Assembly (NCBI GenBank): GCA_964588465.1
Contig: CAZPPL010000003.1
Location: forward strand, 40,545-104,544
Length of the DNA stretch: 64,000 nt
From: an uncultured Gammaproteobacteria bacterium
Lineage (GTDB): Bacteria > Patescibacteriota > Patescibacteriia > Patescibacteriales > UBA12465
Reading direction: 5' to 3'
The position numbers and the translations under genes are program-made. The notes beneath the pieces were generated by a model that did no database searches, had not been told where the DNA came from, and saw nothing but the letters and a program-made list of their open reading frames with translations. Positions 4,524-53,257 of this stretch are shown one piece after another (position 1 is the stretch's first letter; each line of letters begins with the position of its first letter).

Positions 4524-6035
4524 TTACTTAAGTAATTTCTCCAATAATTCTTTAACCATTTTAGGATTAGCTTTACCTTTAGTTTCCGCCATGACTTTAC
4601 CAATAAAAAATTGAATGATATTAGTTTTTCCTTTGCGATATTGAGTTAATTGCTTAGGATTAGCAGTAATTATTTTTTTAACTGCAATTTCTAGCTGAGC
4701 AGAATTATCTAATTGCTCTAGGCCTAGTTCTAGCATAATATCGCTTGGATCTCCACCTTCCCAATACATTTTTTCTAGTATTTTTTGTCCAGCCGAAGAG
4801 TTAATTTTATTTTGATAAATTAAGCTTATTAATTCTGCAAAGTTTTCAGCACTTATTTTTAGATCAGTAATTTTTTTATTATCTGCATTAAGATGTTTTA
4901 ATAACTCTCCAGTAATCCAGTTAGCCGCAGTTTTGGCTAAATGTTTTTCTTGACGGCGAGCTTCGTCACCTTCAGCATTAATCCAAGCCTCCAGTTCAGA
5001 AATAACTTCTTCGGTCCAAGAGGCTAAATTTTTATCATTAACTAAGATTTCGGCCATGGTTTCGTTATAACCATATTCTTTCATAAATCGTCGTTTTTTA
5101 GGCTCGGGCATTTCTGGTATTTGAGCCCATAGTTTAGTCAATAGACCATCGGAAATTTTTAAAGGAGGAATATCTGGTTCTGGGAAATAGCGATAATCTG
5201 CCGAGCTTTCTTTGAGTCGTTGACTTATGGTGGCAGATTTATGTTCATCCCAACCTCGAGTTTCTCCAATAATTTTTTTTCCATTTTTTAATAATTCGGT
5301 TTGTCTAACCACTTCAAAATTAATAGCTTTTTCTACTGCCTTAAAAGAATTAATATTTTTTACTTCTACTTTAGTGTTCACTTGATAATTTTTTTTAGTA
5401 GCTAGAATCTGACCGTCTTGATATTTCCATTTTCCAGTCTCTTGGACGCTAACATTAGCCTCGCAACGCATCTGCCCCTTTTCCATATCAGCATCGCTAA
5501 TATCTAAATAGCGTAGAATTTGTTGATAGGTCTGGCAGAATTCTTTAGCATCTTTAGCATTTTTTATTACTGGTTCAGTAACCAATTCCATCAAAGGCGT
5601 ACCAGCCCTATTAAAATCTAGTAAGGTATAATTTTTATCTTTAAAATGAATGGATTTTCCAGTGTCCTCTTCTATGTGGATACGGGTTATGGCGATTTTA
5701 TTGAGTTCACTTATAGTTAAATACCCCTCGTAGCTTAGGGGCTGATCATATTGAGAGATTTGATAGCCTTTGGGCAGGTCAGGATAAAAATAATTCTTGC
5801 GATCAAATTTAGATGATTGATTTATCTTACAATGTAAAGCCAGACCAGTTAGGATAGTCCAGTCAATGGCTTGTTTATTAGGTACTGGTAGAGTCCCTGG
5901 ATGGCCCAAACAGATGGGACAAACCGTAGTGTTAGGAGCTTGGCCTCTAGCGTCGTTATTACAAGAGCAAAACATTTTACTCTTGGTTTTTAGTTCGGCA
6001 TGTATTTCTAAACCGATGATAGTATCATAAGTCAT
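4524..6035 (-). CDS. gatB: Asp/Glu-tRNA(Asn/Gln) amidotransferase subunit B
   Basis: MTYDTIIGLEIHAEL...KMFCSC...PVCLGHPGTLP and a C-terminal YqeY-like tail. I prefer ATG at 6035 (MTYD...), 1 nt after the dut stop, over the track start at 6059, which would overlap dut. Confidence 0.92.
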   Translation of the reverse strand: MTYDTIIGLEIHAELKTKSKMFCSCNNDARGQAPNTTVCPICLGHPGTLPVPNKQAIDWTILTGLALHCKINQSSKFDRKNYFYPDLPKGYQISQYDQPLSYEGYLTISELNKIAITRIHIEEDTGKSIHFKDKNYTLLDFNRAGTPLMELVTEPVIKNAKDAKEFCQTYQQILRYLDISDADMEKGQMRCEANVSVQETGKWKYQDGQILATKKNYQVNTKVEVKNINSFKAVEKAINFEVVRQTELLKNGKKIIGETRGWDEHKSATISQRLKESSADYRYFPEPDIPPLKISDGLLTKLWAQIPEMPEPKKRRFMKEYGYNETMAEILVNDKNLASWTEEVISELEAWINAEGDEARRQEKHLAKTAANWITGELLKHLNADNKKITDLKISAENFAELISLIYQNKINSSAGQKILEKMYWEGGDPSDIMLELGLEQLDNSAQLEIAVKKIITANPKQLTQYRKGKTNIIQFFIGKVMAETKGKANPKMVKELLEKLLK

Positions 6036-6036
6036 A

Positions 6037-6474
6037 TTAAAATTTACCAGAACTACCAAAACCGCGGTCTTGACGTTCGGTAGAATTATCTAATTTTTCT
6101 TCGCTTATTTTTAAGTTTAAAACTCGTTGTATCAAAATTTGAGCAATTTTTTGTCCGGGAATAATATTAAAATTTTCTTCACTTAAATTTTTAATTATTA
6201 CCTTAATTTCTCCTCGATAATTGGCGTCAATAACTCCACCCATGGTACTGATACCGTTACTGGCTAGTCCACTTTTATCCCATATTAATCCAACATACCC
6301 TTTAGGAATAGCCATTTTTATTCCCGTAGTTACTAAAGTTTGATTGTATGGTGATAGGGAATAGTGCTTATTAGCATACAAATCATAGCCAGCATCATCC
6401 TGGTGAGCTTTTTGAGGCAATTTAGCCTTAGAGTCAAGGCGTTCAATTTTCAATTGTAGATTATCAATTTCCAT
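6037..6474 (-). CDS. dut: dUTP diphosphatase
   Basis: 145 aa with dUTPase motifs AGYDLYA, GVIDANYRGEI and C-terminal RGFGSSG. Confidence 0.93.
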   Translation of the reverse strand: MEIDNLQLKIERLDSKAKLPQKAHQDDAGYDLYANKHYSLSPYNQTLVTTGIKMAIPKGYVGLIWDKSGLASNGISTMGGVIDANYRGEIKVIIKNLSEENFNIIPGQKIAQILIQRVLNLKISEEKLDNSTERQDRGFGSSGKF

Positions 6475-6529: not shown

Positions 6530-7213
6530 TTAGTTAACTAATTTTTGAATGCTTGACCATACTAATTCGTTTATTTCTTTCCGGCTCAATATCTCTTTGT
6601 TTTTGGTACAATTAATTAGTTGAAAATTTGGGAAATCATCGGCTATCTGTAGATAGACTTGCTCAGCTCTTCTTAAGTGGTTTAAATTATTCTCATGGAT
6701 ATCTTTAATTTTTCCAATCCAATCCTCTCGGGCTCTTTTTTGAGCTAATTTTTGAGCTATATCAGCTCCAACGTGTAGAATAATTGTTAAGTCTGGTCGA
6801 GGTATCTCAAAAATCTTATATTCCAGATTATCTAGCCAATTAAAGAATAAACGACGTTTTAGGGGATTGGAAATTTTTCCTCCTTGATGCCCCATATTAG
6901 CACTAGTATAACGGTTGGCTAGCACGATATAGCCTTCATTCAAATATTTTTTAATTTTAAAACTAGCATCATAACGATCCGTGGCATAGAAGATGGAAGC
7001 TTTATAGGGTCCCACTTCTTTAAGTGTACCATATTTGCCTGATAAATATTCTTCTATTGGTCCAGCTGATTTAGTATTATATTGAGGAAAATCCGCTACT
7101 CCCACCTGGTAACCAGCTTTTTCTAAACGAATTTTTAGTAAATTAAGCTGAGTAGCTTTACCACTACCATCAGTACCGTCAATAACAATAAATTTTCCTT
7201 TTGTTGTTTGCAT
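6530..7213 (-). CDS. tmk: Thymidylate (dTMP) kinase
   Basis: FIVIDGTDGSGKATQ P-loop and a DRY-type motif (TDRYDAS). ATG at 7213 (MQTTKGKF...) abuts the upstream stop at 7215. The track start at 7264 would overlap the upstream gene by 50 nt. Confidence 0.9.
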   Translation of the reverse strand: MQTTKGKFIVIDGTDGSGKATQLNLLKIRLEKAGYQVGVADFPQYNTKSAGPIEEYLSGKYGTLKEVGPYKASIFYATDRYDASFKIKKYLNEGYIVLANRYTSANMGHQGGKISNPLKRRLFFNWLDNLEYKIFEIPRPDLTIILHVGADIAQKLAQKRAREDWIGKIKDIHENNLNHLRRAEQVYLQIADDFPNFQLINCTKNKEILSRKEINELVWSSIQKLVN

Positions 7214-7214
7214 A

Positions 7215-7769
7215 TTATTTTTTAATCTTTTTAATAATTTCATCAATTTGTCGGTATAGATCATTTAGAGTCCCGTTATTGTTGAGTTGATATTTAGATT
7301 GGGACATAACTTGAGGGATCTCTGATTCAGACTCCTTTTGTTCATCAAGTAAAAATTGTTCTAAAGTCTTTTTATCATCGCCAATATTCTCATTGCGACG
7401 TACTACTCTCTGATGGCGAGTTTTCAGATCAGCACTAATACTTATTAAATAAAAATTAGAAAAATTTATTAAAGATTTAATATCATTCAGACGTCTTACT
7501 CCGTCTATAATTACAATATCCTGCTGGTCGGCTATTAGATCTTGAGTTATCACTTTATCTAGAATATCACTACCGAATAAAGTTCTAATATTTGATGATA
7601 GATTTTGTAAATTATTTCTACTGATTGGTAAATAAAGACGTTTTAAAATATCACGTAATACTGTAGAAAAACGATGGCTGTTGGCCTTATATTTTTTTTC
7701 TAGATATTCCTTAGTTACTCCCTTACCGCTAGCAATAGGGCCAACTAGTCCTAGAATTATTTTAGGCAT
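7215..7769 (-). CDS. P-loop nucleotide kinase (CoaE / dNMP-kinase-like), substrate unknown
   Basis: N-terminal LGLVGPIASGKGV Walker A and a DGVRR motif; 184 aa. Sits between thyX and tmk in a tight operon. Confidence 0.6.
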   Translation of the reverse strand: MPKIILGLVGPIASGKGVTKEYLEKKYKANSHRFSTVLRDILKRLYLPISRNNLQNLSSNIRTLFGSDILDKVITQDLIADQQDIVIIDGVRRLNDIKSLINFSNFYLISISADLKTRHQRVVRRNENIGDDKKTLEQFLLDEQKESESEIPQVMSQSKYQLNNNGTLNDLYRQIDEIIKKIKK

Positions 7770-7771
7770 AA

Positions 7772-9061
7772 TTATTTTTCAATAATATCATGTAAACCGC
7801 GACGGACATCCCAGTCATCAAGGCTTAAATCAATATGCATTTTTAAATTAGGTAATTCTTCTTTTATTTTTTTAGCCATTTCTTGGGCAGTTTTTCGTAG
7901 GCTAGGATGTACATTACGTCCGGATCTTAATTCTACAACATAAATAGTTGCTGGCAAAGAGTAGCTGACTGAACAAGAAACGTTGAAGCCCATAGCAATG
8001 TAATACTGTCTAATTTCTGGGCTAGTCTTTAGTTTGTTTATAGATTCTTTTTGTAAAGTTATTAATTCTTTAGCCTTTTTTTTGATATTTTTTGGAAGTT
8101 GTTCCAAATACCAATTGTTGAAACCCAAAGTAGTGCCTAATAAAGGCATTCGGCAAACACCATTACGATGACGTTGGATATCTCGAAAAGAACCATAATC
8201 TAAATTAAATTTAAAAGTAAATAAACCTAAATCGCCCATAAAAGTTGGTAAATTGGTTTTAATTGGTCTAGAGTCAATAATTTTTTGATATTTGTCTAAC
8301 TTATTAGAATCTATATTAGTCTGCATACTAAGTTCTTTTTGGCTAGCAAAATTGAAATAAGTATAATTTTCAACTGTGGTAGCCCTATATTTTTCTTGTT
8401 CTGTATATAATTTATGAGAAAAACTATGAGGATATTTTTGTTTCAACTGCTTTAATATTTTTTTAGCTATTTTTTGCACTTCAGGTAAAGGATGATGTCT
8501 TAGTAGGGCTAGTTTATCCCAAGCTTGCCGAAGATTAGTGTGCCAACTTAATTGAGTAGTTATTCCAGCGGGTAGAAAACCTCGTCTAATGTCAAAATTT
8601 CTAGCTTTAATAGCTTTAAGATAGGTATTCTTATCTTCATTCTCTTGTTTGGGGTATTTTTTTATTAGAAATTTTTGTATTTCTTCTTGACTATCAACGT
8701 AGAATGACAACCAGCGGTCTAGAATTTTTTTAGAAACTGGAGTATTAATTGGATCTTTAATCATTTGTTTGGACATGTCAATGTAACGAGTACTGGTTTC
8801 TTGTCCGCTATATAATTGCCAGTCTTGGATAGCTTTATCTGCTAGCATACTAATACCTTCAATAAAAATAGTGGTACTGCCACAATCAGCAATGCTAGCA
8901 TGTCCATAGCCTACATAGAAAGTTTCCATAAACTTACCTGAACCGCTTTTTTTAACTTTTTTTACATGTTCTACTACACTTTTAGGGCTTCGCGAATAAA
9001 GAGCTTGCATCATAGCGGTATCCTCAGGACCAAATTCGTCGTAAATAAAAATATTAGCCAT
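7772..9061 (-). CDS. thyX: FAD-dependent thymidylate synthase ThyX, tandem two-domain form
   Basis: 429 aa, about twice the canonical ThyX length. The first half has YGHASI..., ...SGQETSTRY and LRHH...EVQKIAKKI. The second half has DIQRHRNG and VELRSGRNVHPSLRKTAQEMA. Lies within a dTMP-pathway gene context. Confidence 0.7.
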   Translation of the reverse strand: MANIFIYDEFGPEDTAMMQALYSRSPKSVVEHVKKVKKSGSGKFMETFYVGYGHASIADCGSTTIFIEGISMLADKAIQDWQLYSGQETSTRYIDMSKQMIKDPINTPVSKKILDRWLSFYVDSQEEIQKFLIKKYPKQENEDKNTYLKAIKARNFDIRRGFLPAGITTQLSWHTNLRQAWDKLALLRHHPLPEVQKIAKKILKQLKQKYPHSFSHKLYTEQEKYRATTVENYTYFNFASQKELSMQTNIDSNKLDKYQKIIDSRPIKTNLPTFMGDLGLFTFKFNLDYGSFRDIQRHRNGVCRMPLLGTTLGFNNWYLEQLPKNIKKKAKELITLQKESINKLKTSPEIRQYYIAMGFNVSCSVSYSLPATIYVVELRSGRNVHPSLRKTAQEMAKKIKEELPNLKMHIDLSLDDWDVRRGLHDIIEK

Positions 9062-9071
9062 ATATTTATAA

Positions 9072-9560
9072 TTATTGATCGTTATATTTAGTCATTTTAG
9101 TATCAAGTAAAATTAATTCTATTTTTGCCTCCGAAAATATTTCTTTACTGCGTTTACTAGAATGATAGTCTTGAGCACAGACCACTCGTTTTATTCCAGT
9201 ATTAATAATCATTTTAGCACAAGTATAACAAGGAGTCATTTTACAATATAGAGTCCCGTCCTTTAGGGCAATGCCCATACGAGCGGCTTCGCAAATGGCA
9301 TTTTGTTCGGCATGAGTAGCACGGACACAATGACGGCTGGTGGAGCCGTCTTCATTAATTACGGTATGCATTTCATGCCCGACATCATCGCAATGAGCCA
9401 GACCTATGGGTGAGCCTACATAACCAGTGGCAATTATTCGTTTATCATGAGTTATTACACAGGCAGCTCTACCACGATCGCAAGTACCACGACTACCAAT
9501 GATTTCTGCTATTTTCATAAAGTACTTGTCCCAAGAAGGACGTTGATGAGGCTTATTCAT
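9072..9560 (-). CDS. dCMP deaminase (ComEB/CDA family)
   Basis: Zinc motifs HAEQNAI and PCYTCAKMI; 162 aa. Confidence 0.9.
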   Translation of the reverse strand: MNKPHQRPSWDKYFMKIAEIIGSRGTCDRGRAACVITHDKRIIATGYVGSPIGLAHCDDVGHEMHTVINEDGSTSRHCVRATHAEQNAICEAARMGIALKDGTLYCKMTPCYTCAKMIINTGIKRVVCAQDYHSSKRSKEIFSEAKIELILLDTKMTKYNDQ

Positions 9561-9731
9561 AAAATTATAAATTAATAAATATCTAAAGTATATATATTTT
9601 AACTCATTATTTAAATAAAATAAATATTGACAAATATAGCTTTATATTGCTTTAGGCTTTTAAAAAGTCTAAAAATAGGCTAAAATGTTAAATAGATATG
9701 ATTAATATTCTAAATTCTAAATAAAATCATC

Positions 9732-10005: not shown

Positions 10006-10839
10006 ATGGATCTATCAATTATCATCGTTTCTTGGAATGTCCGAGAAAAATTACGCGCTAATCTAAGCGCTTTATTTAAATCAAAAGGCAATTTTAGCTT
10101 TGAAGTTTATGTAGTGGACAATGATTCTTCTGATGATAGTGTACTAATGGTAAAAGAAGAGTTTCCGGTAGTGCATTTGATAACTAATTCAGATAATTAT
10201 GGTTTTGCCAAGGCTAATAATCAAGCTCTTAAATTGGTTATTGGTGATTTTATTTTATTACTTAATCCCGATATGCAACTGAGAATTGATAGTTTGGATA
10301 AAGTTTTTAATTGGGCTCGGAATAAGTCCAAGGCCACAGTTATAGGTTGCAAGTTAGTAAATGATAAACAGGAGATTATTAAACAGGTACGGCGTTTTCC
10401 CAGCCTTAGCGATCAATTAGCTATTGTTTTAAAAATTCCTCATTTAATTCCGCAAATACTTAAGCATTATTTAGTCACGGATTTTAATTATGAGTTGGCT
10501 AGTAAAGTAGATTCAATTCGTGGGGCCTTTTTTTTGATTAATCGAAAGAATTATCAGAGACTTAGCGGAGAAAATTTACCACTCTTAGATGAGCGCTATT
10601 TTATATGGTTTGAAGAGATAGATTTTTGTAGAGAAGTTTATAAACTAGGGGGTGAAGTTTGGTATACCCCCGTGGCAGAGTGTCTAGATTATGTTGGAGC
10701 TAGTTTTAGTCAATTGAAAAGAAGTCAAAGTCAAAAATATTTTAGTGATTCCATGTTAAAATATTTCTACAAATGGGAGAAAAAATGGAAATATTTAGTG
10801 CTGAAAATAGTTTGGTTTTTCATTAGAATTTTTATTTAA
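10006..10839 (+). CDS. Family 2 glycosyltransferase
   Basis: LSIIIVSWN...VVDNDSSDDS...NYGFAKANN...LLNPD... GT-A signature. Confidence 0.85.
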   Translation: MDLSIIIVSWNVREKLRANLSALFKSKGNFSFEVYVVDNDSSDDSVLMVKEEFPVVHLITNSDNYGFAKANNQALKLVIGDFILLLNPDMQLRIDSLDKVFNWARNKSKATVIGCKLVNDKQEIIKQVRRFPSLSDQLAIVLKIPHLIPQILKHYLVTDFNYELASKVDSIRGAFFLINRKNYQRLSGENLPLLDERYFIWFEEIDFCREVYKLGGEVWYTPVAECLDYVGASFSQLKRSQSQKYFSDSMLKYFYKWEKKWKYLVLKIVWFFIRIFI

Positions 10840-10868
10840 TATTATTTATTTTTTGATCTCAATTCTTT

Positions 10869-11936
10869 ATGAGTAATAAAGTTGCTATAGTTTTAGTTAA
10901 TTATAAGGATTATGCTTCTAAATTTTTATTAGCTTGCCGAGACTCTTTACGAAATCAAAATTATGATTTTAAAAAAGTTTCAATATATATTATTGATAAT
11001 GCTTCTAGTCCAGAATCTTTGAAATACCTTAAAGATATTTATCCCGAGGCTACAATATTAGTCCGAAAAGATGGAAATTATGTTGCCGCCAATAACTTAG
11101 GTTTTAGGCAAGCCATAAATGATGGTTGCCAATATTTAGTTACGCTTAATATGGATACTGAGCTAGATTCAGATTGGCTAAAGGAATTAGTGTTAGCTCT
11201 AGATAGCAATTCTCAAGCAGGGATTGCTCAATCTAAGATTTTACTTTATTCAAAGGATAGTAGTGGAGAACAACTGAGACAGATTAATAGTCTGGGTAAT
11301 ATTGTTCATTTTTTAGGTTTTGGTTTTACCTCTGCTTATCAAGAGAAAGATCAAGATATACAAGCTTATCCTGATATTAAAGGTTATGCCAGTGGTTGTT
11401 CGTTTATAATTCGTTCTGAAGTTTTTGAAGAAGTGGGGGCATATAACGATGAATTCTATATGTACCACGATGATATGGAATTAAGCTTAAAAGTAAGATT
11501 AGCCGCTTATCATATTATTTTAGCTCCCCGGTCAGTAGTTTTCCATAAATATGAGTTTAGACGTAGCATTAAGATGTTGTACTATATGGAGCGTAATCGT
11601 TATTTGTTATTATTCATCTTCTATCCAGTATACCTGTTAATCTTGATTATTTTGCCTTTAGTATTAATGGATATTGGTTTATTATTTTTTTCTATATTTA
11701 AGTCTTGGTTTGGTAGCAAAATAAAGGTCTATAGCTATTTTTGTAGTTGCAAAAATTATGCTAAAATTATAAAAGAGCGTAGAAACATAAAAAAAATAAG
11801 TCGTATTCCTTTCTCTGTTTTAGCTGGTGATTTTTCGGGTAAGATAGAATTTAAAGAGATTGCTAATCCGTTACTTACCTATGTAATTAATCCTTTGTTT
11901 AATCTATATTGGTCTTTACTTAAATTATTTATTTAA
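10869..11936 (+). CDS. Family 2 glycosyltransferase with C-terminal membrane helices
   Basis: VAIVLVNYK...IIDNASS...NLGF...LNMD GT2 signature, followed by hydrophobic YLLLFIFYPVYLLILIILPLVLMDIGLLFF. Confidence 0.85.
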   Translation: MSNKVAIVLVNYKDYASKFLLACRDSLRNQNYDFKKVSIYIIDNASSPESLKYLKDIYPEATILVRKDGNYVAANNLGFRQAINDGCQYLVTLNMDTELDSDWLKELVLALDSNSQAGIAQSKILLYSKDSSGEQLRQINSLGNIVHFLGFGFTSAYQEKDQDIQAYPDIKGYASGCSFIIRSEVFEEVGAYNDEFYMYHDDMELSLKVRLAAYHIILAPRSVVFHKYEFRRSIKMLYYMERNRYLLLFIFYPVYLLILIILPLVLMDIGLLFFSIFKSWFGSKIKVYSYFCSCKNYAKIIKERRNIKKISRIPFSVLAGDFSGKIEFKEIANPLLTYVINPLFNLYWSLLKLFI

Positions 11937-11937
11937 T

Positions 11938-12741
11938 ATGGATTTATCTGTCATCGTGGTAAATTATAAAAATAAAGTTAAACTTATTAATTGTTTAGAT
12001 TCTTTTTATAAATCTTCTCAGGCTGATTTCAGCTGGGAGTTTATTATAGTTGATAATAATTCTGGAGATGACTTAAGTGCTCTCTCCGTTGCTTATAGTA
12101 ATTTAAAATTAATTATGAGTCCGCGTAATCAAGGAATGGGTGGGGGTAATAATTTAGGAATTGAAAAAGCCCAGGGTAAAGTTATTTTGATTCTTAATCC
12201 AGATATAATTATTAAGCAAAAAGATGTTAAGGTATTATTAGATTATTTACAGAGCACTCCACGAATAGGTTTACTAGGTCCTAAGTTATTAGATCCTGAC
12301 GGTTCTTTACAATTATCTTGTTCCTATTTTCCCAGTTTTTTTATGCCCATTCTGCGTCGAACTTTTTTAGGAGACTATTTCCAGAAACAGCGAGATCATT
12401 TTATGATGCAAGACTTTGATCATAACTCTATTTTAGAAGTGGATTGGTTAATGGGCTCTTGTTTAATGTTTAAACGAGAAATAACTCTTTTAAATAAGCA
12501 GATTTTTAAACCCCGCTTTGATGAGCGTTATTTTATGTATTTTGAGGATATTGATTTAGCTCGACAAATGCGAGCTCAAGGTCAAAAAGTGGTTTATAAT
12601 CCACAAGTGAGTGTTGTCCATGACCATCGGCGTCAGAGTGCTCAATATCCTTGGTATTTAGCAGTATTCTTAGATAGTTTAGCTCGTCATCATATTAATT
12701 CTTGGTTCAAATATTTTATAAAATGGGGTTTTAAAATTTAG
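11938..12741 (+). CDS. Family 2 glycosyltransferase
   Basis: LSVIVVNYK...IVDNNSGDD...GMGGGNNLG...LNPD...FEDIDL. Starts 1 nt after the previous stop. Confidence 0.85.
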   Translation: MDLSVIVVNYKNKVKLINCLDSFYKSSQADFSWEFIIVDNNSGDDLSALSVAYSNLKLIMSPRNQGMGGGNNLGIEKAQGKVILILNPDIIIKQKDVKVLLDYLQSTPRIGLLGPKLLDPDGSLQLSCSYFPSFFMPILRRTFLGDYFQKQRDHFMMQDFDHNSILEVDWLMGSCLMFKREITLLNKQIFKPRFDERYFMYFEDIDLARQMRAQGQKVVYNPQVSVVHDHRRQSAQYPWYLAVFLDSLARHHINSWFKYFIKWGFKI

Positions 12742-12761
12742 AGAATTTAAAATATAACAAT

Positions 12762-13643
12762 ATGTCAAAAATTAAAAAAGCCATTTTTCCTGTAGCTGGT
12801 TTTGGAACACGATTCTTACCAGCTACTAAGGCTCAACCCAAAGAAATGTTACCAGTTGTGGATAAACCAGTTATTCAATATTTAGTTGAGCAGGCAGTGG
12901 CTGCTGGTATTGAAGAGATTATTTTTGTTACTGGTCGAGGCAAGCGGGCGATTGAAGACCATTTTGATTATTCTTTTGAACTGGAAAAGACTTTGGTGGA
13001 AAAAAATAAATTAGATTTAGTTAAAAAAGTGCAAGCCATTGAACGATTGGCTAAATTTTCTTATGTTCGACAACCTCTACCTCGCGGTGATGGTGATGCT
13101 ATTAATTGTGCTGCGCATTTAGTGGGAAAAGATGAGGCAATTTTAGTAATGTTTGGCGATACGCTATATGATTCTAAACTCTCGCCAGTTAAACAAGTAA
13201 TGGATGTATATGAGAAATATGGGGATTCGGTTATTGGTTTATCAGAGGTAAAGCCAGAAGAGCTCAGTCAGTTTGGAGTGATTGATGGAATCCCTCTTGG
13301 TGATGATGTTTATGAAATTAAAAGATTTATTGAAAAACCTACAATTAAAGAGGCTCCTTCTAATCTGGTCCAGGTAGGTATCAATATTATTACTCCAGAT
13401 ATAATAAAAGTTTTGAAAACTATAAACCGCGGTAAGTCTGAAGAAATTCGTTTGGCCGATGCTTATGATGCTCTGCTTAAAAAGGGAAAAGTAATTTATG
13501 GCAAGAAATTAGAAGGAGAATGGCTGGATACTGGTAATAAATTCAATTTTATTAAAGCCACTATTAAGCTGGGGTTAAAGGACAAAGAAATTGGCGAGGT
13601 TTTGAAGAACTTTATCATTGATATTAGTCGAGGATTAAAATAA
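12762..13643 (+). CDS. galU: UTP--glucose-1-phosphate uridylyltransferase
   Basis: KAIFPVAGFGTRFLPATKAQPKEMLPVVDKPVIQY, the canonical GalU N-terminus. Confidence 0.92.
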   Translation: MSKIKKAIFPVAGFGTRFLPATKAQPKEMLPVVDKPVIQYLVEQAVAAGIEEIIFVTGRGKRAIEDHFDYSFELEKTLVEKNKLDLVKKVQAIERLAKFSYVRQPLPRGDGDAINCAAHLVGKDEAILVMFGDTLYDSKLSPVKQVMDVYEKYGDSVIGLSEVKPEELSQFGVIDGIPLGDDVYEIKRFIEKPTIKEAPSNLVQVGINIITPDIIKVLKTINRGKSEEIRLADAYDALLKKGKVIYGKKLEGEWLDTGNKFNFIKATIKLGLKDKEIGEVLKNFIIDISRGLK

Positions 13644-21176: not shown

Positions 21177-22127
21177 TTATTGTAAAATTTTGCCAATAAT
21201 ATTTTGGTGTCCACTTAAAAAGTTTTTTGCAGTCATAACTTTTTTTCCAGCCATTTGTAGCTCTGATATGATTAAGGAGTCCGTTCCACATTGTACCGCT
21301 AATTTATTTTCAGTTAAGAATATTTTTCCAATTTTATGCTTATTATTTTCTAGAATTTTATTTTCTACACTTTTTATTTTTAATATTTTTTTATTAACCG
21401 TGGAATAAGTCCCTGGCCAAGGGTTATAGGCTCGGACCATCCTCTCAATTTCTAAAGCTGATTTTTTCCAATCAATTCTGCCATCTTCCTTATTAATAAT
21501 CTTCACATAACTAGCTTTTGTTTCTTCTTGAATTTGAGGCTTAATATCACCAGCCATAAAATCTTTAAGTGTGGGAATAAGCAGTTTGGCTCCTAGCTGA
21601 GACAATCTGTCTCGGATTTTCTCTAGATTTTCTTGATCAGTCAATTGTATTTTAGCTTGCCGTAAAATAGGTCCAGTGTCAAGTCCAGCGTCCATTTTCA
21701 TTATAGTTATTCCAGTCTCTTGGTCTCCGTTTAAAATAGGAGCGTTTAAGCAGGCGGCTCCGCGGTATTTAGGTAATAGGGAAGCATGAACATTAATACC
21801 TCCGAAACGAGGAAGCTTTAAAATCTCTGGAGGAATAATTTTTCCATAAGCTATTACTACAATTAAATCAGGATTAAGTCTCTGAATATTAGCAATTTCA
21901 TTTTTAAGGCTATGGGGTTGAAAAATTGCTAAATTATTTTCTACAGCCAAGCGTTTAACTGCTGGAGGAGTTAATATTTGGTGGCGTCCTATTGGTTTAT
22001 CTGGCGAAGTAAATACTCCCACAATATTAAAGTCTGGGCTAGTAATGAGTGTTTTCAGTCCAGGTAGAGCAAAATCTGGTGTGCCCATAAAGATTAAACG
22101 TATTTTTTTATTATAACTAATTGGCAT
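21177..22127 (-). CDS. fmt: Methionyl-tRNA formyltransferase
   Basis: IRLIFMGTPDFALP, NVHASLLPKYRGAA and the HxSLLPxxRG motif; 316 aa. Confidence 0.93.
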   Translation of the reverse strand: MPISYNKKIRLIFMGTPDFALPGLKTLITSPDFNIVGVFTSPDKPIGRHQILTPPAVKRLAVENNLAIFQPHSLKNEIANIQRLNPDLIVVIAYGKIIPPEILKLPRFGGINVHASLLPKYRGAACLNAPILNGDQETGITIMKMDAGLDTGPILRQAKIQLTDQENLEKIRDRLSQLGAKLLIPTLKDFMAGDIKPQIQEETKASYVKIINKEDGRIDWKKSALEIERMVRAYNPWPGTYSTVNKKILKIKSVENKILENNKHKIGKIFLTENKLAVQCGTDSLIISELQMAGKKVMTAKNFLSGHQNIIGKILQ

Positions 22128-22780: not shown

Positions 22781-23254
22781 TTAATTTTCTACTAATTTAT
22801 CAATAAATAATATTCCATCTAAATGGTCTATTTCATGCTGAATGATGCGAGCTAAGGTTTTCTCCGCTTTTATTTTTTTCTTATTGCCGTGTTTATCTAG
22901 ATAAATACAATTAATTCTTTTATGGCGTTCTACTAGTCCATAAATAATTTTTCCTTTATTATCTAAAACCGATAAACAACCCTCTTCTTTGACATCTTTT
23001 GCCCAAGATTTTTTGGTAATTTGAGGGTTGATTAAAAACATTATTTTTTTTCCATTAAGAAGAGCTAAGGCGCGGATATTCTTTCCAACTTGCGGAGCCG
23101 CCAAACCAGCCCCATCTTTTTGAGTCATAGTTTCCTCAATATTTGTAAATAATTCTTGCAATTTTGGATTATTAATATCAGTGGCTGGGATTTCCAATGA
23201 TTTTTTCCTCAGAATAGGGTTAGGGTGAATAATTATTGTTAATGGTTTAGACAT
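22781..23254 (-). CDS. def: Peptide deformylase
   Basis: GAGLAAPQVG, EGCLS and HEIDHLDG, the three canonical PDF motifs. Confidence 0.94.
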   Translation of the reverse strand: MSKPLTIIIHPNPILRKKSLEIPATDINNPKLQELFTNIEETMTQKDGAGLAAPQVGKNIRALALLNGKKIMFLINPQITKKSWAKDVKEEGCLSVLDNKGKIIYGLVERHKRINCIYLDKHGNKKKIKAEKTLARIIQHEIDHLDGILFIDKLVEN

Positions 23255-24360: not shown

Positions 24361-25848
24361 TTATTTGATGGGTTTACCCATATTATAATTATAAAGGAAT
24401 TGTGAAGAAACCGCTACAACATTAGCATAATTATATCCTAATTTTTTAAACACCGCTTCACTAGCAAAGGGACGTTTTTTACCGCCAGAAATTAGATATA
24501 CTGTAGGAAAACTAGTAGTTTTTACTAGAGTACCTTCGTTTAATAAAATTGGGCTAGTAGTAGCGTAAGCTTCCAATTTTTTAGAACTGACTTTTATAAT
24601 TCTTTGATAAGGGAACTTTAAAGGTAAAAGAATTTTATCAACTAAAGCTCTAGTACCGTTTTGAACATAATAAATTTTATGAGTTTTTTGATCTTGCAGT
24701 AGAGCTCCAGTGACGTAAGTGGAGGTGGCAGTTATACTAGATCCGGTTTTGTAAGATTGTAGATCAGCCACTGTTGCCACTTCTATTTCACCAGGATTAA
24801 AACCAATCTTTTTAAACACCGCTTCACTGACAAATGGTCTTTTTTGTTTATCTACTAGTAAATATATTTTTTTATTTGGGGTTTGTACCACGGAATAATT
24901 AGCAAATTTAATAATATTACCTGTTGGATACTTATTTAAATCTGCTTTAGTAACTTGTACTATTTGTTTAGGACTAAATCTAGATATAAAAGCGGACCAA
25001 TTAGCAAATAAACGTTTATGACCGCCTTCAATTAGCCATACGCGGGGATCATTTTTAGCTTTTATAACTGAACCATCAGGATAAGTTCTAGAAATACTAG
25101 GGAAATAGCGATTCCATAATTTATAAAAATTATAATTACCATTAAAAACATGGGGGGTGTAGTCATATAGAGCAGCAGTAGCTCTATTTTCTGGGATTAC
25201 AGTCATACTTCGCTTATTGGAGTTAAGATAAGGATTAATAGTGTTGTAAATGGTGTAAGGTTTTCCGGCTTGATAATTATAGTAATTAGGGTTTTTCATA
25301 TAAGATAGAAATTGCAAGGCTGCACTGTTTACTTGTTTGCCAAAGCCTTTGTAATAAGGGTTACATATCCAACTATCTGGGCAACCATAACCAGTGGCCC
25401 AATCTAGATGTCTTTGTGGTGGGTTAGTATCTTCTATTAAACTTTGTTCTTTTTGCAGTAAAACTAAAATTAGTTTAGGGTTAACCGTAGTGATGTGTTT
25501 ACATTTAGCTATTTTTTCTGCCTTACTAGGAGAAGCACTTAAGGTTACTCCATCACAATCATAGTTATTATGAGTAGCATTATAGATAATTCTTGCTGCC
25601 GAGCTACGTTGTCCATTACTATCAATAGCCGTATAATTAGTTAAAAAACTTCCTTTGCTAATTAAGAAATTTTCTATATCATTCAAATTCATCGCTTTAT
25701 AATCTAATAATTGATTATTGCTTATAATTCTATTGGGATTAAAACTAGGGTCAATACTAGTTTGGGCTTGGGATAATTGAGGCCATAATAGCCCTAGATA
25801 GGAAATAAGTAATATTAAAACAATAATAATGACTTTTTGAGATTTCAT
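24361..25848 (-). CDS. Secreted protein: N-terminal Cys-containing domain plus four ~55-aa C-terminal repeats
   Basis: ATG at 25848 gives signal peptide MKSQKVIIIVLILLISYLGLLWPQLSQAQT. Repeats include ...YLLVDKQKRPFVSEAVFKKIGFNPGEIEV... and ...YLISGGKKRPFASEAVFKKLGYNYANVVAV.... The track start at 25917 would overlap the clpB stop. Confidence 0.6.
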   Translation of the reverse strand: MKSQKVIIIVLILLISYLGLLWPQLSQAQTSIDPSFNPNRIISNNQLLDYKAMNLNDIENFLISKGSFLTNYTAIDSNGQRSSAARIIYNATHNNYDCDGVTLSASPSKAEKIAKCKHITTVNPKLILVLLQKEQSLIEDTNPPQRHLDWATGYGCPDSWICNPYYKGFGKQVNSAALQFLSYMKNPNYYNYQAGKPYTIYNTINPYLNSNKRSMTVIPENRATAALYDYTPHVFNGNYNFYKLWNRYFPSISRTYPDGSVIKAKNDPRVWLIEGGHKRLFANWSAFISRFSPKQIVQVTKADLNKYPTGNIIKFANYSVVQTPNKKIYLLVDKQKRPFVSEAVFKKIGFNPGEIEVATVADLQSYKTGSSITATSTYVTGALLQDQKTHKIYYVQNGTRALVDKILLPLKFPYQRIIKVSSKKLEAYATTSPILLNEGTLVKTTSFPTVYLISGGKKRPFASEAVFKKLGYNYANVVAVSSQFLYNYNMGKPIK

Positions 25849-25909
25849 TGTTATATTATAGTATATTTTTTTATTTGCGACAAAAGATATTAGACTAGGG
25901 TTGTTTCTT

Positions 25910-28552
25910 TTATTCATTAACTTTTACAGTTATCGCCTCTTGAGCGTTTAAACTTATTTTTACTTTATCACCTTCCTTGATTTTACCTCTAATTATTTCT
26001 CCAGCTAATTCGTCCAAAATCATAGTTTGAATAATACGTTTTAAAGGGCGAGCGCCATAAGTGATATCGTAACCCTTTTCCGCTAATAATTTTTTTATTT
26101 TATAACTAATTTTGACCGAAATATTTTTATTGTTCAATCTTTTTTCCACTTTAAAAATTTCTAAATCTACAATTCTTTCCAATACTTTGGGAGTTAAAGC
26201 TTTAAATAGAACAATTTCATCAATTCTGTTAAGGAATTCTAGTTTAAAATTATTTTTTAAGATTTTATCTATTTTTTCCTGCATTTCTTTCTCGCGTAAT
26301 TTGTTAATCTCAATTTTATTGTCTGCACCAGTGAAGCCAATAGAATATTGTTTAATTATTTCATTACCTAGATTAGAAGTCATGATTATTATAGTATTCT
26401 TGAAATTTATCATTCGTCCTTTAGAGTCGGTTAGATGTCCATCGTCTAGAATTTGTAGGAGCATATTAAACATATCGGGATGAGCTTTCTCAATTTCATC
26501 AAATAGTACCACGCTGTAAGGGCGTCGGCGAACTTTATCAGTTAATTGTCCTCCTTCGTCATAACCAACATAACCTGGGGGAGATCCAATTAATTTTGCT
26601 ACAGAATGTTTTTCCATAAATTCACTCATATCTAAACGAATTAAGGATTTTTCATCGTCAAACATAAAACGGGCTAGGGCTTTGGCCAGTTCAGTTTTAC
26701 CTACTCCAGAAGGACCTACGAATAAAAAGGAACCAATAGGTTTTTTTTCTTCATTAATGCCCGCCCTGCTACGACGTAAAGCATTGGCCACTGCTTTAAT
26801 TGCTGGATCTTGGCCTACTACTTCTTTTTTTAACTCATTTTCGGCATTACTAAGTTTTTTAATTTCATCTTGTAGCATACGATTTAGAGGAATACCAGTC
26901 CAGCGAGCTACTACTTTAGCGATATCTTCTTCATCTACTTCTTCTTTTAATATTCGTTGTCCTTTATTTTGTATTTTGAGTAATTCTTCTTGTGATTTTT
27001 TAATCTTATTCTCTAATTTTGGAATCAGACTATATTTAATTTCAGCCACTTTAGTCAGATTTGCTCCTTGACGTTGGGCAATTTCTGCTTTAGTTTTTAA
27101 ATTTTCTATTTCTTTTTTAGAGCCACGAATTTGAGAAATAATATTTTTTTCATTGTTCCAATGTAATTCCAGTTGATCAGCTTTTTCTCTGAGTTTAGCC
27201 AACTCCATTTTAAGTGATCGCAGTTTTGGTGATTTTTTATTATTAGTAGTAGCTAGACCCGCTTTATTCAATTCTAATTGATTGATTCTACGTTTTAATT
27301 GGTCTAATTCATCAGGTATAGAATCTATTTCCATACGTAGGGAAGAGGTAGCTTCATCCATTAAATCCACTGCTTTATCTGGCAAGAAACGATCGCTAAT
27401 ATAACGGTTAGACAATTTAACCGCAGCAATTAAAGCATCATCGGTGATTCTAACTCCATGATGGACTTCGTATTTTGTTTTTAGTCCACGTAACATACTT
27501 ATAGCATCATCAATACTAGGCTCGTTCACATAAATTGGTTGAAAGCGACGTTCTAGAGCTGAATCTCGTTCAATATATTTTTTATATTCTTTAGTGGTGG
27601 TGGCTCCAATAGTTCGTAATTCGCCACGGGCTAGGGCTGGTTTTAGCATATTAGAAGCATCTATAGTTCCTTCAGGAGCACCAGCGCCAATAAGCGTATG
27701 TAATTCGTCAATAAATAATATAATACGACCAGCCTGAGAAGTTACTTCTTTTAATACGGCTTTAAGTCGATCTTCAAATTCTCCTCGGAATTTGGCACCA
27801 GCCACTAAAGATCCTAAATCTAAGGTAACGATTTCTTTATTTTGTAAATTTTCTGGTACATCGCCAGCTATAATGCGTTGTGCTAAACCTTCCACGATTG
27901 CGGTTTTGCCAGTTCCAGCTTCACCGATTAAAACTGGATTATTTTTAGTGCGACGAAGCAATACCTGCATAATACGACGGATTTCTTGATCTCGGCCAAT
28001 AACTGGATCTAATTTTTCTTTTCTAGCTAATTCAGTCAAATTTGTAGTATATTTTTCTAAAACTCTATATTTATTCTCGGGAAAAGGATCAATAACTCTT
28101 TGAGAGCCACGTAGAGCTTTTAAAATATTTTTTACATTTTGATATTCAACTTTAAAATTTAGTAAAACGCTCTGAGCTGGCGAGGGAACTCCGATTAAAG
28201 ACAATAGAATATGTTCGGTAGAAATGAATTCATCATCCATACCGTCGGCTTCTTTCTGCGCTCGTTCTAGAATCAAAGCCGTTTCTGCTGTTCCCGATAC
28301 AGCTTGTATTGGACCAGATTCGGTATTTATTTTTAGACGTGGTAATTTTTTTATTTCCTTTAAGGTATACTCTTCAATTATCTCTGGATCAATTTTCATT
28401 TTCTCCAAAACTGGTTTAATCAAGCCTTCATTTTGTTGTAATAAAGCGAGTAGAACATGAAGAGCTTCAATATTACTTTGACCGTAGGTGGAAGCAATAA
28501 TCTGGGCATTAATAATAACTTCTTGTGATTTATCCGTGAATTTATTAAACAT
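25910..28552 (-). CDS. clpB: Hsp100/Clp chaperone, ClpB-type (two AAA+ modules, long coiled-coil M-domain)
   Basis: Clp_N repeats; D1 [15 protein letters not shown] / ILFIDELH; pore loop AKFRGEFE; a ~135-aa coiled-coil linker; D2 [12 protein letters not shown] / [13 protein letters not shown] at 28552 ([10 protein letters not shown]) is preferred. Confidence 0.9.
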
Positions 28553-35884: not shown

Positions 35885-36655
35885 ATGAAATATAAATCCT
35901 TTATCTTTGTACTCATCCCCGTAGTTATTTGGCTATTAGCCGAAGCCTTTTTGATTAGACCTAGAATTTTTTATTTTATTTTGAGTCTATGTTTGTTATT
36001 AATAGTTCTAAGTATAAAATATATTAATAATAAGCATAAAGAATATTGGCTATTATTTACTATTTTTCCAATTCTATTTTTATTGAGCTTCTTCTTTTAT
36101 GCCGCTATCGTGGTAAGTAATTTTTGGATTCAGTCAATATTTTTATTAGTTATTGTCTTTATCTTTTTATATTTACGTGATTTTTATTATTATTCTATTC
36201 AACTTGAGCACAGCCAAGCAGAATTGAAATGGCTAACTAAATTAGATAATTTGTTAATTTCTGGAAGTTTCCTAATAGCTTTTGCTTCTGCCGCCGTACT
36301 CTTCCGTTTGTCGGCTTTTATTACTTGGCCCATATATATAATGTTACCTATTTGGGCTATAATAGTCTGGCTATTGTTCGTTCAGTTTAAACCCTTAAAG
36401 GTGCCAGGTTCTTGGTCAGTCAGTGGTTTGGCCTTAATCAATACTTTAATTATAACTGAACTTGCTGGGATTTTAGTTTTGCTACCTTTAAATTTTAATA
36501 TTTTAGCTTTATTCTTAGCCATTATTTATTATTTAGGTTTAATGATTATGCGTTTAGCTGAGAGCGATAGCCTCAGTAGTCGGGCTTTGAAGTTGCCCTT
36601 AATTCTAAGCAGTATTGCTATCTTATTTTTATTCTTAACTGCTCGTTGGTTATAA
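35885..36655 (+). CDS. Polytopic membrane protein (about 8 TM), unknown function
   Basis: 256 aa, almost entirely hydrophobic helices. Starts 12 nt after the upstream stop. Confidence 0.6.
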   Translation: MKYKSFIFVLIPVVIWLLAEAFLIRPRIFYFILSLCLLLIVLSIKYINNKHKEYWLLFTIFPILFLLSFFFYAAIVVSNFWIQSIFLLVIVFIFLYLRDFYYYSIQLEHSQAELKWLTKLDNLLISGSFLIAFASAAVLFRLSAFITWPIYIMLPIWAIIVWLLFVQFKPLKVPGSWSVSGLALINTLIITELAGILVLLPLNFNILALFLAIIYYLGLMIMRLAESDSLSSRALKLPLILSSIAILFLFLTARWL

Positions 36656-51932: not shown

Positions 51933-51976
51933 TATTTGCCTAAGCCATATTAGATATGAATTTAGTTGAATACTAT

Positions 51977-52005
51977 TTGACAATATTGTCTAAAAGTGAT
52001 ATCAT
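51977..52005 (+). promoter_or_regulatory. Strong sigma70-type promoter TTGACA-17-TGaTATCAT, with 12-bp palindrome GACAATATTGTC over the -35
   Basis: TTGACA at 51977-51982, extended -10 TG at 51997-51998, and TATCAT at 52000-52005. The perfect palindrome spans 51979-51990. Confidence 0.55.
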
Positions 52006-52087
52006 GCTTAATAACGATGAGAACTTGGATGCTAAGGCAAAAAAGTTCTTTAAAAATAAAAAAAAATGGGCCGAGGGGGGCCTTATC

Positions 52088-53257
52088 ATGAAAAATAATA
52101 TTTTATTTTCAAAAGAAGAGTTGCCCCAAGAGGCGACTCAGAAAATTCGCCGAATATGGCAGATTTTCTTCATGTCAGTTATTGGAGTAGCAGGGATAAT
52201 ATTTCTGCTTTTTCATTTAACTGAGGCGATACTAGCGTCGTTAGGGATATTTATATCCCTATGTTTAGCCACATTAATTGCTGGCTGGACACAAATTCCG
52301 TATAAGACGGAATTTATAATAGAAATTTATGGGAGGTACATTGGTGTACCTCTAGTATCAGGTTTCCATCTGATATTTCCTTTTTTTGGTTTAATCACCT
52401 TGAGGAAGGTGATATCCAAAAAAGAACAGATGTTAGGATTGCATCTGTATGAAAAAAACGATGAGGAGGAGAATCCTTCTCAGGGAGGAGACATTGAATT
52501 TCTAGACGGCTCCTCGTCTATTCGGGCTTTCTTCTATTATTTGATAGAAGATTCCGAAAAGGCGATCTATAATGTCGAAGATTATCTTCGATTTATAGAG
52601 GAAAAGGGCGCCTTACGAGTATTTTTAGGTACCTATACTATAGACGAAGTAATTCGTCTAAAAAATATCTTCACTTTGGAAGGTATCATTTTAGGCAGAA
52701 ATTGGTTGCAAAAACTAATTGATGCTGAGGATGATACTCAGAGAGAAGCTATTAGTAGAAGCATTGAAACGGCCTTTGAGAAAACGGCCTTTTATACTTC
52801 TCTAAAAACTTGGGGAATTGTCCCCAAAGCTCTAGTCATATCTGATATAGAGCTTACCGAACTAGTCAAAGCGCAAAGACAGCGCAAACTAGTTGCGGAG
52901 AAAGATCTCCAGGTTAAGGAGATCGAGGAAAAACAGGCCAAGATTCAGAAGAGAATCAAGGTCATCCTCGCCACTGGAGATAAATTAGCCCGTATTAGGG
53001 CGGGCGAGGGAGAGAAACTTTATCAATCTCTTTATGGTGAAGGGGTTGCTATGAGAATAGAAGCTTGGCTCGGAAAAGGTATTCCGGCTGAGCAGATTTC
53101 TGCGCTCTTATCAAAGGATTTTCAATGGTCAGCTGTTGGAAATAGTAAGAGCAGTGACAAAACCATCATCCTTGGTGGAGACACTAAAGATGCTGGTCGA
53201 GGAGCTGAGTTTGCTGCTGGATTCAGCAAAGCTTCTTCTCAAAAGGGGCCATCATGA
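52088..53257 (+). CDS. Membrane-anchored SPFH (band-7/stomatin/HflK-like) domain protein
   Basis: Two N-terminal TM helices, then ...EFIIEIYGRYIGVPLVSGFHLIFPFFGLITLRKV... (an SPFH start), ...WGIVPKALVISDIELTELV, and a coiled coil QRQRKLVAEKDLQVKEIEEKQAK. I prefer ATG at 52088, preceded by GAGGGGGG and downstream of the promoter; the track start is 51956. Confidence 0.68.
   Translation: MKNNILFSKEELPQEATQKIRRIWQIFFMSVIGVAGIIFLLFHLTEAILASLGIFISLCLATLIAGWTQIPYKTEFIIEIYGRYIGVPLVSGFHLIFPFFGLITLRKVISKKEQMLGLHLYEKNDEEENPSQGGDIEFLDGSSSIRAFFYYLIEDSEKAIYNVEDYLRFIEEKGALRVFLGTYTIDEVIRLKNIFTLEGIILGRNWLQKLIDAEDDTQREAISRSIETAFEKTAFYTSLKTWGIVPKALVISDIELTELVKAQRQRKLVAEKDLQVKEIEEKQAKIQKRIKVILATGDKLARIRAGEGEKLYQSLYGEGVAMRIEAWLGKGIPAEQISALLSKDFQWSAVGNSKSSDKTIILGGDTKDAGRGAEFAAGFSKASSQKGPS

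Follow-up and report, generated by a model that had tools for sequence, protein, structure and literature searches.

A double-length flavin-dependent thymidylate synthase from a patescibacterial contig with active-site residues divided between two ThyX-fold domains

Introduction

Many bacteria make thymidylate solely by means of the flavin-dependent thymidylate synthase (FDTS), or ThyX, which is also a drug target. Its active site is built from three subunits, and this arrangement and the location of the oxidation of reduced nicotinamide adenine dinucleotide phosphate (NADPH) are still under study. Well-known members of this family (PF02511, TIGR02170) are TM0449 from Thermotoga maritima, Rv2754c from Mycobacterium tuberculosis, and A674R from the virus PBCV-1. 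Here, a ThyX gene of about twice the usual length is described from a window of 64,000 nucleotides (nt), corresponding to positions 40,545 to 104,544 of the contig CAZPPL010000003.1 (assembly GCA_964588465.1). The assembly is labelled as an uncultured Gammaproteobacteria bacterium, and its GTDB lineage is Patescibacteriota. All coordinates below are those of the window. The gene is located at 7772..9061 on the minus strand.

In canonical ThyX, each active site combines residues from three subunits with different roles. The RHR triplet of subunit A binds the flavin adenine dinucleotide (FAD) designated FAD(A) at the phosphates, the ribityl chain and the isoalloxazine ring, and Arg95(A) and Arg199(A) bind the deoxyuridine monophosphate (dUMP) that subunit C holds (PMC6514825 section 3.1). 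Subunit B binds the phosphates of FAD(A) with Ser71(B) and Arg190(B). In subunit C, dUMP is bound by Arg87, Ser105 and Arg107, and Tyr108 serves as a lid (PMC6514825 section 3.1). In T. maritima ThyX, R174 activates dUMP, and S88, R90 and Y91 assist methylene transfer and are catalytically important (PMC8316439). The contiguous ThyX motif is RHRxxSxxxxSxR(Y).

The chlamydial ThyX (CT632) is roughly twice the usual length and very divergent, and has FDTS activity. Chlamydial ThyX was omitted from phylogenies for lack of identity (PMC6171736). A domain-duplicated ThyX of Chloroflexi was mentioned as uncharacterised by Valas & Bourne 2009 (PMC3224940).

Results

A ThyX Protein with Two ThyX-Fold Domains

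The long ThyX gene encodes 429 amino acids (aa) followed by a stop codon, in a window that is AT-rich (GC content of 30-38%). The open reading frame (ORF) list and the translation bear out the position and the length given in a preliminary description of this DNA. The full-length protein matches Pfam Thy1 (PF02511) with 79.5 bits in two stretches, above the gathering cut-off of 24.8 bits, and family members are named FAD-dependent thymidylate synthase at NCBI. The product is a double-length FDTS, which has two ThyX-fold domains per chain. The AlphaFold2 (AF2) model of the full-length protein has a predicted local distance difference test score (pLDDT) of 74 and a predicted template modelling score (pTM) of 0.76, with the C-half scoring about 90. 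All of its 50 best Foldseek matches in the PDB are ThyX structures.

The N-half domain (residues 1-216; 8414..9061, minus strand) was recognized with Pfam Thy1, with hhalign, and with HMMER against M. tuberculosis ThyX. Taken alone, it matches Thy1 with an E-value of 1.5e-17 and 64.4 bits over residues 17-212. The profile of the N-half family was aligned to a canonical reference profile, which was built from Thermotoga-type ThyX (the TM0449 sequence is identical to the database entry). The hhalign probability was 88%, covering residues 4-216.

The ThyX core of the C-half (residues 262-429; 7775..8278, minus strand) was recognized with hhalign, with AF2 fold matches, and with a sub-threshold match to Pfam Thy1. 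Between the two domains, residues 217-261 (8279..8413, minus strand) correspond to a variable linker and a decayed N-terminal part of the C-domain, where the mean pairwise identity in the family is only 14%. The insertions of longer family members fall into this segment, which is also the part of the C-domain expected to carry the GHxS motif. The C-halves of close homologues match Thy1 at E <= 0.01 in only 8 of 20 cases. The alignment between the C-half profile and canonical ThyX by hhalign has a P-value of 2.4e-4 and includes most of the domain. A narrow C-half profile searched against PDB sequences gave no ThyX match, only a spurious one to IF-1. When the C-half alone (residues 215-429) was modelled with AF2, its 50 best PDB matches were all ThyX, with Foldseek probabilities of 0.98-1.00. 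The profile alignment and the fold matches indicate that the C-half is a ThyX-fold domain, although a highly divergent one.

The preliminary description proposed that both halves are ThyX-like and that a Thy1 profile search would give two hits. The likeness of both halves holds, for the N-half by sequence and for the C-half by profile-profile alignment and fold; it had been stated that the proposal falls if only one half is ThyX-like, and this is not the case. The two hits are seen as two stretches in the full-length match, but the C-half alone stays below the cut-off of Pfam. The helix pattern LR...E...A..I...L....P, which was said to be shared by both halves, is found exactly in neither. The resemblance is only loose, although both regions correspond to the same ThyX helix.

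Direct comparison of the two halves was not informative. BLASTP between the N-half and the C-half found no significant similarity. Local hhalign gave a probability of 11% with the first half mis-registered, and global hhalign returned a meaningless alignment of 11 columns. Thus, internal duplication is not demonstrable from the comparison between the halves, and it rests on the likeness of each half to canonical ThyX.

Active-Site Residues Are Divided between the Two Halves

The positions of the active-site residues were determined with HMMER alignments to M. tuberculosis ThyX chains and with profile alignments to T. maritima ThyX. The two registers are mutually consistent.

The N-half includes a degenerate form of the ThyX motif, K76...D80-W-Q82...S85..E88.S90-T-R92-Y93 (8783..8836, minus strand), in which RHR is replaced, while the Ser/Glu/Ser/Arg/Tyr loop for dUMP is retained. 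In the alignment to the M. tuberculosis chain, D80-W-Q82 is placed under R95-H-R97, and S85, S90, R92 and Y93 are placed under S100, S105, R107 and Y108. The segment DWQLYSGQETSTRY is encoded at 8783-8824. This agrees with the preliminary description in that S....S.RY is kept and DWQ stands in place of RHR; the limit of 8827 given there included one extra codon, that of Q79, and the segment ends at 8824. Upstream in the N-half, G53-H54-A-S56 (8894..8905, minus strand) corresponds to the GHxS motif. By alignment, H54 is equivalent to T. maritima H53, and S56 to T. maritima T55 and M. tuberculosis Ser71. S56 is invariant in one alignment (A2). R160 (8582..8584, minus strand) aligns with R147 of T. 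maritima and R172 of M. tuberculosis, and is found only in the N-half. N176-L-R178 (8528..8536, minus strand) aligns with N163 and R165 of T. maritima and N188 and R190 of M. tuberculosis. T. maritima R174 (M. tuberculosis R199) is without an equivalent in the N-half, where L187 occupies the position in a variable column.

The C-half shows the opposite pattern. The segment R293-D-I-Q-R297-H298-R299 (8165..8185, minus strand) includes RHR and the Arg at position -4. In the profile alignment, R297-H-R299 is placed under R78-H79-R80 of T. maritima (R95-H96-R97 of M. tuberculosis), R293 under R74, and R379 under R174. R379 lies in E377-L-R379-S380 (7922..7933, minus strand), and is thus equivalent to M. 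tuberculosis R199. The motif segment of the C-half is RHRNGVCRMPLLGT, and the location of RHR at 8165-8173 is as the preliminary description had it. So is the loss of both serines and the RY: at the positions of S83, S88, R90 and Y91, the C-half has V302, L307, a gap and G309, and hydrophobic residues are characteristic of these positions in the profile alignment. In addition, M305 is found at the position of E86 and Q352 at the position of R147. The C-half has no counterpart of H53, T55, N163 or R165; therefore, the Ser/Ser/Arg/Tyr loop and the equivalents of R147, GHxS and R165 are all lacking. The positions equivalent to R74, RHR, S83 and E86 are K76, D80-W81-Q82, S85 and E88 in the N-half.

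The C-half also has strongly conserved motifs with no counterpart in canonical ThyX: MPLL (305-308), WY (317-318), VHPxLR (384-389) and DDWDxRRG (415-422). The last of these belongs to the C-terminal tail DDWDxRRGxxDI (415-426). These C-half-specific motifs span about 7784-8149.

No alignment places an intact RHRxxSxxxxSxR in either half, which the preliminary description had named as an outcome that would overturn it, and the contiguous ThyX motif is not found within one domain. Across both halves together, the set of motif and active-site residues (the equivalents of RHR, R174, S88, R90, Y91, R147, H53 and R165) is complete. In terms of the canonical subunits, the alignments indicate that the C-half keeps the residues of subunit A and none of those of subunits B or C, while the N-half keeps those of B and C and none of those of A. 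The complementary degeneration pointed out from the signature motif extends to the equivalents of R174, R147, GHxS and R165.

The Long Form and Its Residue Partition Are Conserved

At E <= 0.001, homologues of the long ThyX fall into 4028 clusters (90% identity), with lengths of 428-441 aa throughout the best 120. With clustering at 50% identity, there are 1994 representatives at E <= 0.001 and 505 at E <= 1e-30. Among the top 150 of these representatives, nearly all are about 430-500 aa and match across both halves; the few others are either fragments or proteins made longer by extensions. Among species-representative genomes, at least 578 stretches encode a relative. The best 80 of these are mostly from metagenome-assembled genomes (MAGs) labelled Patescibacteria or its candidate phyla, with a minority under other labels.

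Several MAG records (L014, L016, L017, L026, L030, L031 and others) with titles such as "uncultured Gammaproteobacteria", "Bdellovibrionales" and "Bacillota" encode a long ThyX sharing 60-68% identity with that of the window. Such titles are probably placeholder or mistaken taxonomy for Patescibacteria bins.

Residue conservation was counted in an alignment of 132 representatives, which are 36-54% identical to the query. In the N-half, K76 is present in 130 representatives, E88 in 127, S[TS]RY at positions 90-93 in 126, and R160 in 126. GHxS or NHxS is found in all eight commonest variants, which together cover 103 of the 132. Under RHR, the N-half mostly has D-x-P/Q, and none of the commonest variants, which were listed, has RHR. 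In the C-half, R293 and R379 are present in all 132, R[HQ]R at positions 297-299 in 131, and Q352 in 127, while the positions under Ser/Arg/Tyr are hydrophobic. Between pairs of family members, the N-half is on average 43% identical and the C-core 36%.

Four full-length homologues from jumbo phages and cyanophages, with 24-33% identity, show the same residue partition. Their carriers (L081-L084) are Vibrio phages Yong MS32 and BONAISHI, Tunturiibacter phage Tunturi_5, and Microcystis phage Mvi-JY20. The full-length model superposes on the structure predicted in BFVD for a phage protein of 461 aa (UniProt A0A6B7EUB9) over 430 columns with a TM-score of 0.72, and on that for the 491-aa "thymidylate synthase" of Microcystis phage Ma-LMM01 with a TM-score of 0.57. 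Since the split is kept in 132 diverse representatives and in the phage homologues, it is neither chance nor decay. This pattern of sequence conservation indicates that both halves, as well as the partition of residues between them, are under purifying selection.

The Long ThyX Gene Is in a Cluster for dTTP Precursor Synthesis

The long ThyX gene is the second in a co-directional run of genes on the minus strand. The first gene encodes a deoxycytidine monophosphate (dCMP) deaminase (9072..9560; Pfam dCMP_cyt_deam_1, E = 2.1e-22; PHROG dCMP deaminase, E = 5e-39). Downstream of ThyX is a gene for a P-loop kinase of 184 aa (7215..7769; PHROG 139, E = 3.7e-17; NCBIfam PRK08356, E = 2.3e-14), which is probably a deoxynucleoside monophosphate (dNMP) kinase; PHROG 139, a phage family of such kinases, is its best match. 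It is followed by the genes for the deoxythymidine monophosphate (dTMP) kinase Tmk (6530..7264; Pfam Thymidylate_kin, E = 2.1e-21; NF005923, E = 1.1e-33) and for dUTPase (6037..6474; Pfam dUTPase, E = 1.3e-35). The dUTPase completes a cluster of five genes for precursors of deoxythymidine triphosphate (dTTP), and gatB (4524-6059, minus strand) comes directly after it. In the ORF list, tmk and the kinase gene share 50 nt, and the Pfam match of Tmk begins at residue 28. An internal Met18 (start at 7213) would abut the stop codon of the kinase gene (7215-7217), and it is probably the true start of tmk. A candidate sigma-70-like promoter, TTGTCA-16-AATAAT (9606..9633, minus strand), lies upstream of the deaminase gene; it has 10 of 12 consensus matches, and such sites are not enriched over shuffled sequences.

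This neighborhood is shared by relatives. Of 80 related genomic loci, 50 have a deaminase gene within 3 kb of the long ThyX gene and on its strand, 51 have the kinase gene there and 54 have tmk. dUTPase is found in 43 of 84 loci (80 genomic and four phage loci). Three metagenome proteins of 613-629 aa (P0471, P0475 and P0479) are natural fusions of a dCMP deaminase and a complete long ThyX. The deaminase is N-terminal in these fusions, in the same order as the two genes in the window, and they are 63-68% identical to the window proteins. In phage Tunturi_5, the long ThyX follows a dCMP deaminase, with a DNA helicase and a dUTPase nearby. In the pathway proposed for this cluster, dCMP deaminase would make dUMP, the long ThyX would convert it to dTMP, and the dNMP and dTMP kinases would phosphorylate the product. 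The dUTPase would supply further dUMP and keep deoxyuridine triphosphate (dUTP) low.

No thyA, folA or second thyX gene was detected in the 64-kb window or in the +/-6 kb flanks of the 80 relatives. Among the window ORFs scanned, which are a part of all window ORFs, none was glyA, folD, folA or thyA. The window encodes methionyl-tRNA formyltransferase (fmt; 21177-22127, minus strand) and peptide deformylase (def; 22781-23254, minus strand). The presence of fmt and def implies that the organism uses formyl-tetrahydrofolate, that is, folate one-carbon units.

An anti-phage dCTP deaminase (NF041025) was also considered for the genes beside the long ThyX; the kinase weakly resembles the N-terminal part of that model, and the deaminase its C-terminal part. 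It was not adopted as the primary reading, because the genes are separate, they are in a dTTP-synthesis cluster, and their better matches are to dNMP kinase and dCMP deaminase families of phages and cells.

Other Features of the Window

Divergent from the nucleotide operon, three family-2 glycosyltransferase genes are followed by a nucleotidyl transferase gene (10006-13643, plus strand), and constitute a cluster for cell-envelope sugars. Three ORFs of 518, 256 and 433 aa, at 24361-25917 (minus strand), 35885-36655 (plus strand) and 51956-53257 (plus strand), have no Pfam match at E <= 1e-5.

Discussion

A Predicted Homodimer with Two Composite Sites

On balance, it is probable that the long ThyX is a functional FDTS, in which the two domains divide the three canonical subunit roles among them and form two composite sites per homodimer; the binding of FAD, the catalysis, the dimer and the site number are all predicted. 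An ancient duplication or fusion would have allowed two domains to split the roles that identical subunits have in canonical ThyX. The C-domain would take the role of subunit A, with R297-H-R299 holding the phosphates, ribityl chain and isoalloxazine ring of FAD, and with R297 and R379, together with R293, contacting and activating the uracil of dUMP. The N-domain may have both other roles. As subunit B, it would contact the FAD phosphates with S56 and R178. As subunit C, it would bind the phosphate of dUMP with the loop of E88, S90, R92 and Y93, which would also cover the reacting atoms.

In the canonical tetramer with 222 symmetry, each site draws on three subunits in a fixed order: (A,B,C), (B,A,D), (C,D,A) or (D,C,B). 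If this symmetry is kept, two chains of the long form would make a pseudo-tetramer with C-domains at A and D and N-domains at B and C, because this is the only assignment that yields any complete site. The complete sites would be (A,B,C) and (D,C,B), each composed of one C-domain and both N-domains. The remaining two sites would be without all of the canonical ligand-binding residues examined, and thus degenerate in every role. The homodimer with two composite sites is thus predicted from the residue partition, the published geometry and the assumed 222 symmetry. Half the usual number of active sites, as anticipated in the preliminary description, fits the residue partition and the published three-subunit geometry under this symmetry. 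The alternative expectation of an obligate intramolecular composite site needs to be modified. The site would be composite, but it cannot be purely intramolecular: the canonical site needs three domains, so the composite site would use the N-halves of both chains, the third domain coming from the partner chain.

Several observations weigh against this interpretation. The protein scores 41.4 bits against the thyX equivalog TIGR02170, with the N-half only, below the cut-off of 87.9 bits. The C-half alone scores 19.6 bits against Pfam Thy1, below 24.8 bits, and covers only profile positions 103-191, while its hhalign probability against canonical ThyX is only 44%, which is moderate support. The AF2 model of the C-half alone is of moderate quality, with a pLDDT of 68.7 and TM-scores to ThyX of only about 0.35-0.48, and the first ~100 residues of the full-length model, which include GHxS and the substrate loop, have pLDDT values below 50. 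At the position of M. tuberculosis Arg87, which belongs to subunit C, the N-half has M72 instead of an Arg. K76, at the N-half position equivalent to R74, is conserved, though the proposed model has no need of it. The 222 pseudo-tetramer is assumed, and the oligomeric state and the choice of the interface within a chain are likewise putative. No biochemical or structural data on the long family were found, and it has no solved structure in the PDB.

Alternative Interpretations

It is rather unlikely that all four pseudo-sites are used, with the two degenerate ones repurposed for docking of NAD(P)H or folate or as an allosteric nucleotide site. In the N-half K76 and D80, and in the C-half Q352 and MPLL, face the degenerate site and are strongly conserved, as are the C-half-specific motifs WY, VHPxLR and DDWDxRRG. 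ThyX has no dedicated NADPH-binding domain, and NADP+ was seen in the FAD site of M. tuberculosis ThyX. However, no evidence points positively to such a use, and the residues may just as well have been conserved for packing, to fill a cavity that is no longer in use. If the degenerate sites were repurposed, reactions that are sequential in one canonical pocket would be separated, and the long form would be a naturally asymmetric flavoenzyme.

Another interpretation is that the enzyme is active but its C-domain is a mere pseudo-enzyme scaffold, structural or regulatory in role, in which RHR and R379 were retained for reasons unrelated to FAD, such as stability or nucleotide sensing, and that the N-domain is catalytic with a non-canonical flavin site. 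The C-half is indeed far more divergent than the N-half, and it has conserved motifs of its own (MPLL, WY, VHPxLR and DDWDxRRG) for which canonical ThyX offers no counterpart. Nevertheless, the residues conserved in it, R293, R297, H298, R299 and R379, are those which contact FAD and uracil in canonical ThyX. The N-half has neither the FAD-phosphate residues of subunit A nor R174, which makes a canonical site impossible with the N-half alone. This interpretation is improbable.

To about the same degree, it is hard to credit that the long form is a ThyX-like enzyme with another substrate or product, for example, one for another modification at C5 of a pyrimidine nucleotide. Jumbo phages often modify bases, and ThyX homologues have been recruited to nucleoside-antibiotic pathways or phage base modification. 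The long form occurs in jumbo phages and scores below the thyX equivalog cut-off, and no biochemical data on the long family were found. On the other hand, all canonical residues for dUMP binding and catalysis are present collectively. The gene is in a conserved operon that includes dCMP deaminase, dTMP kinase and dUTPase, and this context and the deaminase fusions point to the conversion of dUMP to dTMP. The long form is also widespread in species-representative genomes, mostly Patescibacteria-labelled MAGs among the best 80 stretches, and the surroundings of the gene, both in the window and in the flanks of the relatives, showed no thyA.

An artefact behind the double length, whether an error in sequencing or assembly that merged two neighbouring thyX genes or the decay of a pseudogene copy, is suggested by nothing other than the unusual length, and is refuted by the breadth and conservation of the uninterrupted ~429-aa ORF (4028 clusters, 505 representatives at E <= 1e-30, and at least 578 stretches), both halves of which are under purifying selection.

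Significance

A two-domain FDTS of this kind would represent a natural dissection of the ThyX active site, one domain being flavin-binding and uracil-activating, and the other providing the substrate loop and the second flavin contact. It would be a ready-made system for the analysis of subunit contributions, site independence and half-of-sites kinetics, for which engineered heterotetramers would be unnecessary. The long form also matters for annotation. Motif searches with RHRxxSxxxxSxR and the thyX equivalog cut-off both miss it. In genome-reduced Patescibacteria, it could thus happen that thymidylate synthesis is annotated as missing when it is in fact present.

Comparison with Known Systems

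The tandem ThyX architecture is already known, and the split of the motif between the halves appears to be undescribed in the open-access literature, where no description of the motif partition or of its consequence for the number of sites was found. The long form is real, widespread and conserved, and it has probably received no biochemical study.

By its description, the duplicated ThyX of Chloroflexi has the architecture of the long form, with two ThyX domains in one polypeptide. That paper contains no sequence analysis of the halves and mentions neither a split motif nor the number of sites (PMC3224940). No Chloroflexi sequence was identified among the named hits, most hits having no taxonomy. 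Likewise, no chlamydial sequence is among the listed long-ThyX hits. A search from a 531-aa representative, a possible chlamydial relative, found metagenome proteins, one Acidimicrobiaceae MAG and one Methanosarcina-labelled MAG. The phage long ThyX-like proteins differ in being viral and in having larger insertions, with lengths of 461-518 aa, and most of them carry the annotation hypothetical. Thy1 from Thermus thermophilus (PDB 6J61), a ThyX with an extra C-terminal domain, is among the fold matches of the long form. Unlike the long form, its chains of 239 and 242 residues are too short for a second ThyX domain.

A conceptual parallel is the monomeric dUTPase of herpesviruses. In that enzyme, duplication and fusion partitioned the motifs between two halves, and a trimer with three interface sites became a monomer with one site. 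The fold and chemistry of dUTPase are unrelated to those of ThyX, and the transition there is from trimer to monomer, while that predicted here is from tetramer to dimer with two sites.

The closest comparison is with canonical ThyX. It has the same fold as both halves of the long form, the same FAD, dUMP and catalytic residues when both halves are combined, and the same context of dTMP synthesis. The long form differs in having two diverged domains per chain with no contiguous motif in either, and it is predicted to be a homodimer, or pseudo-tetramer, with two active sites instead of a homotetramer with four.

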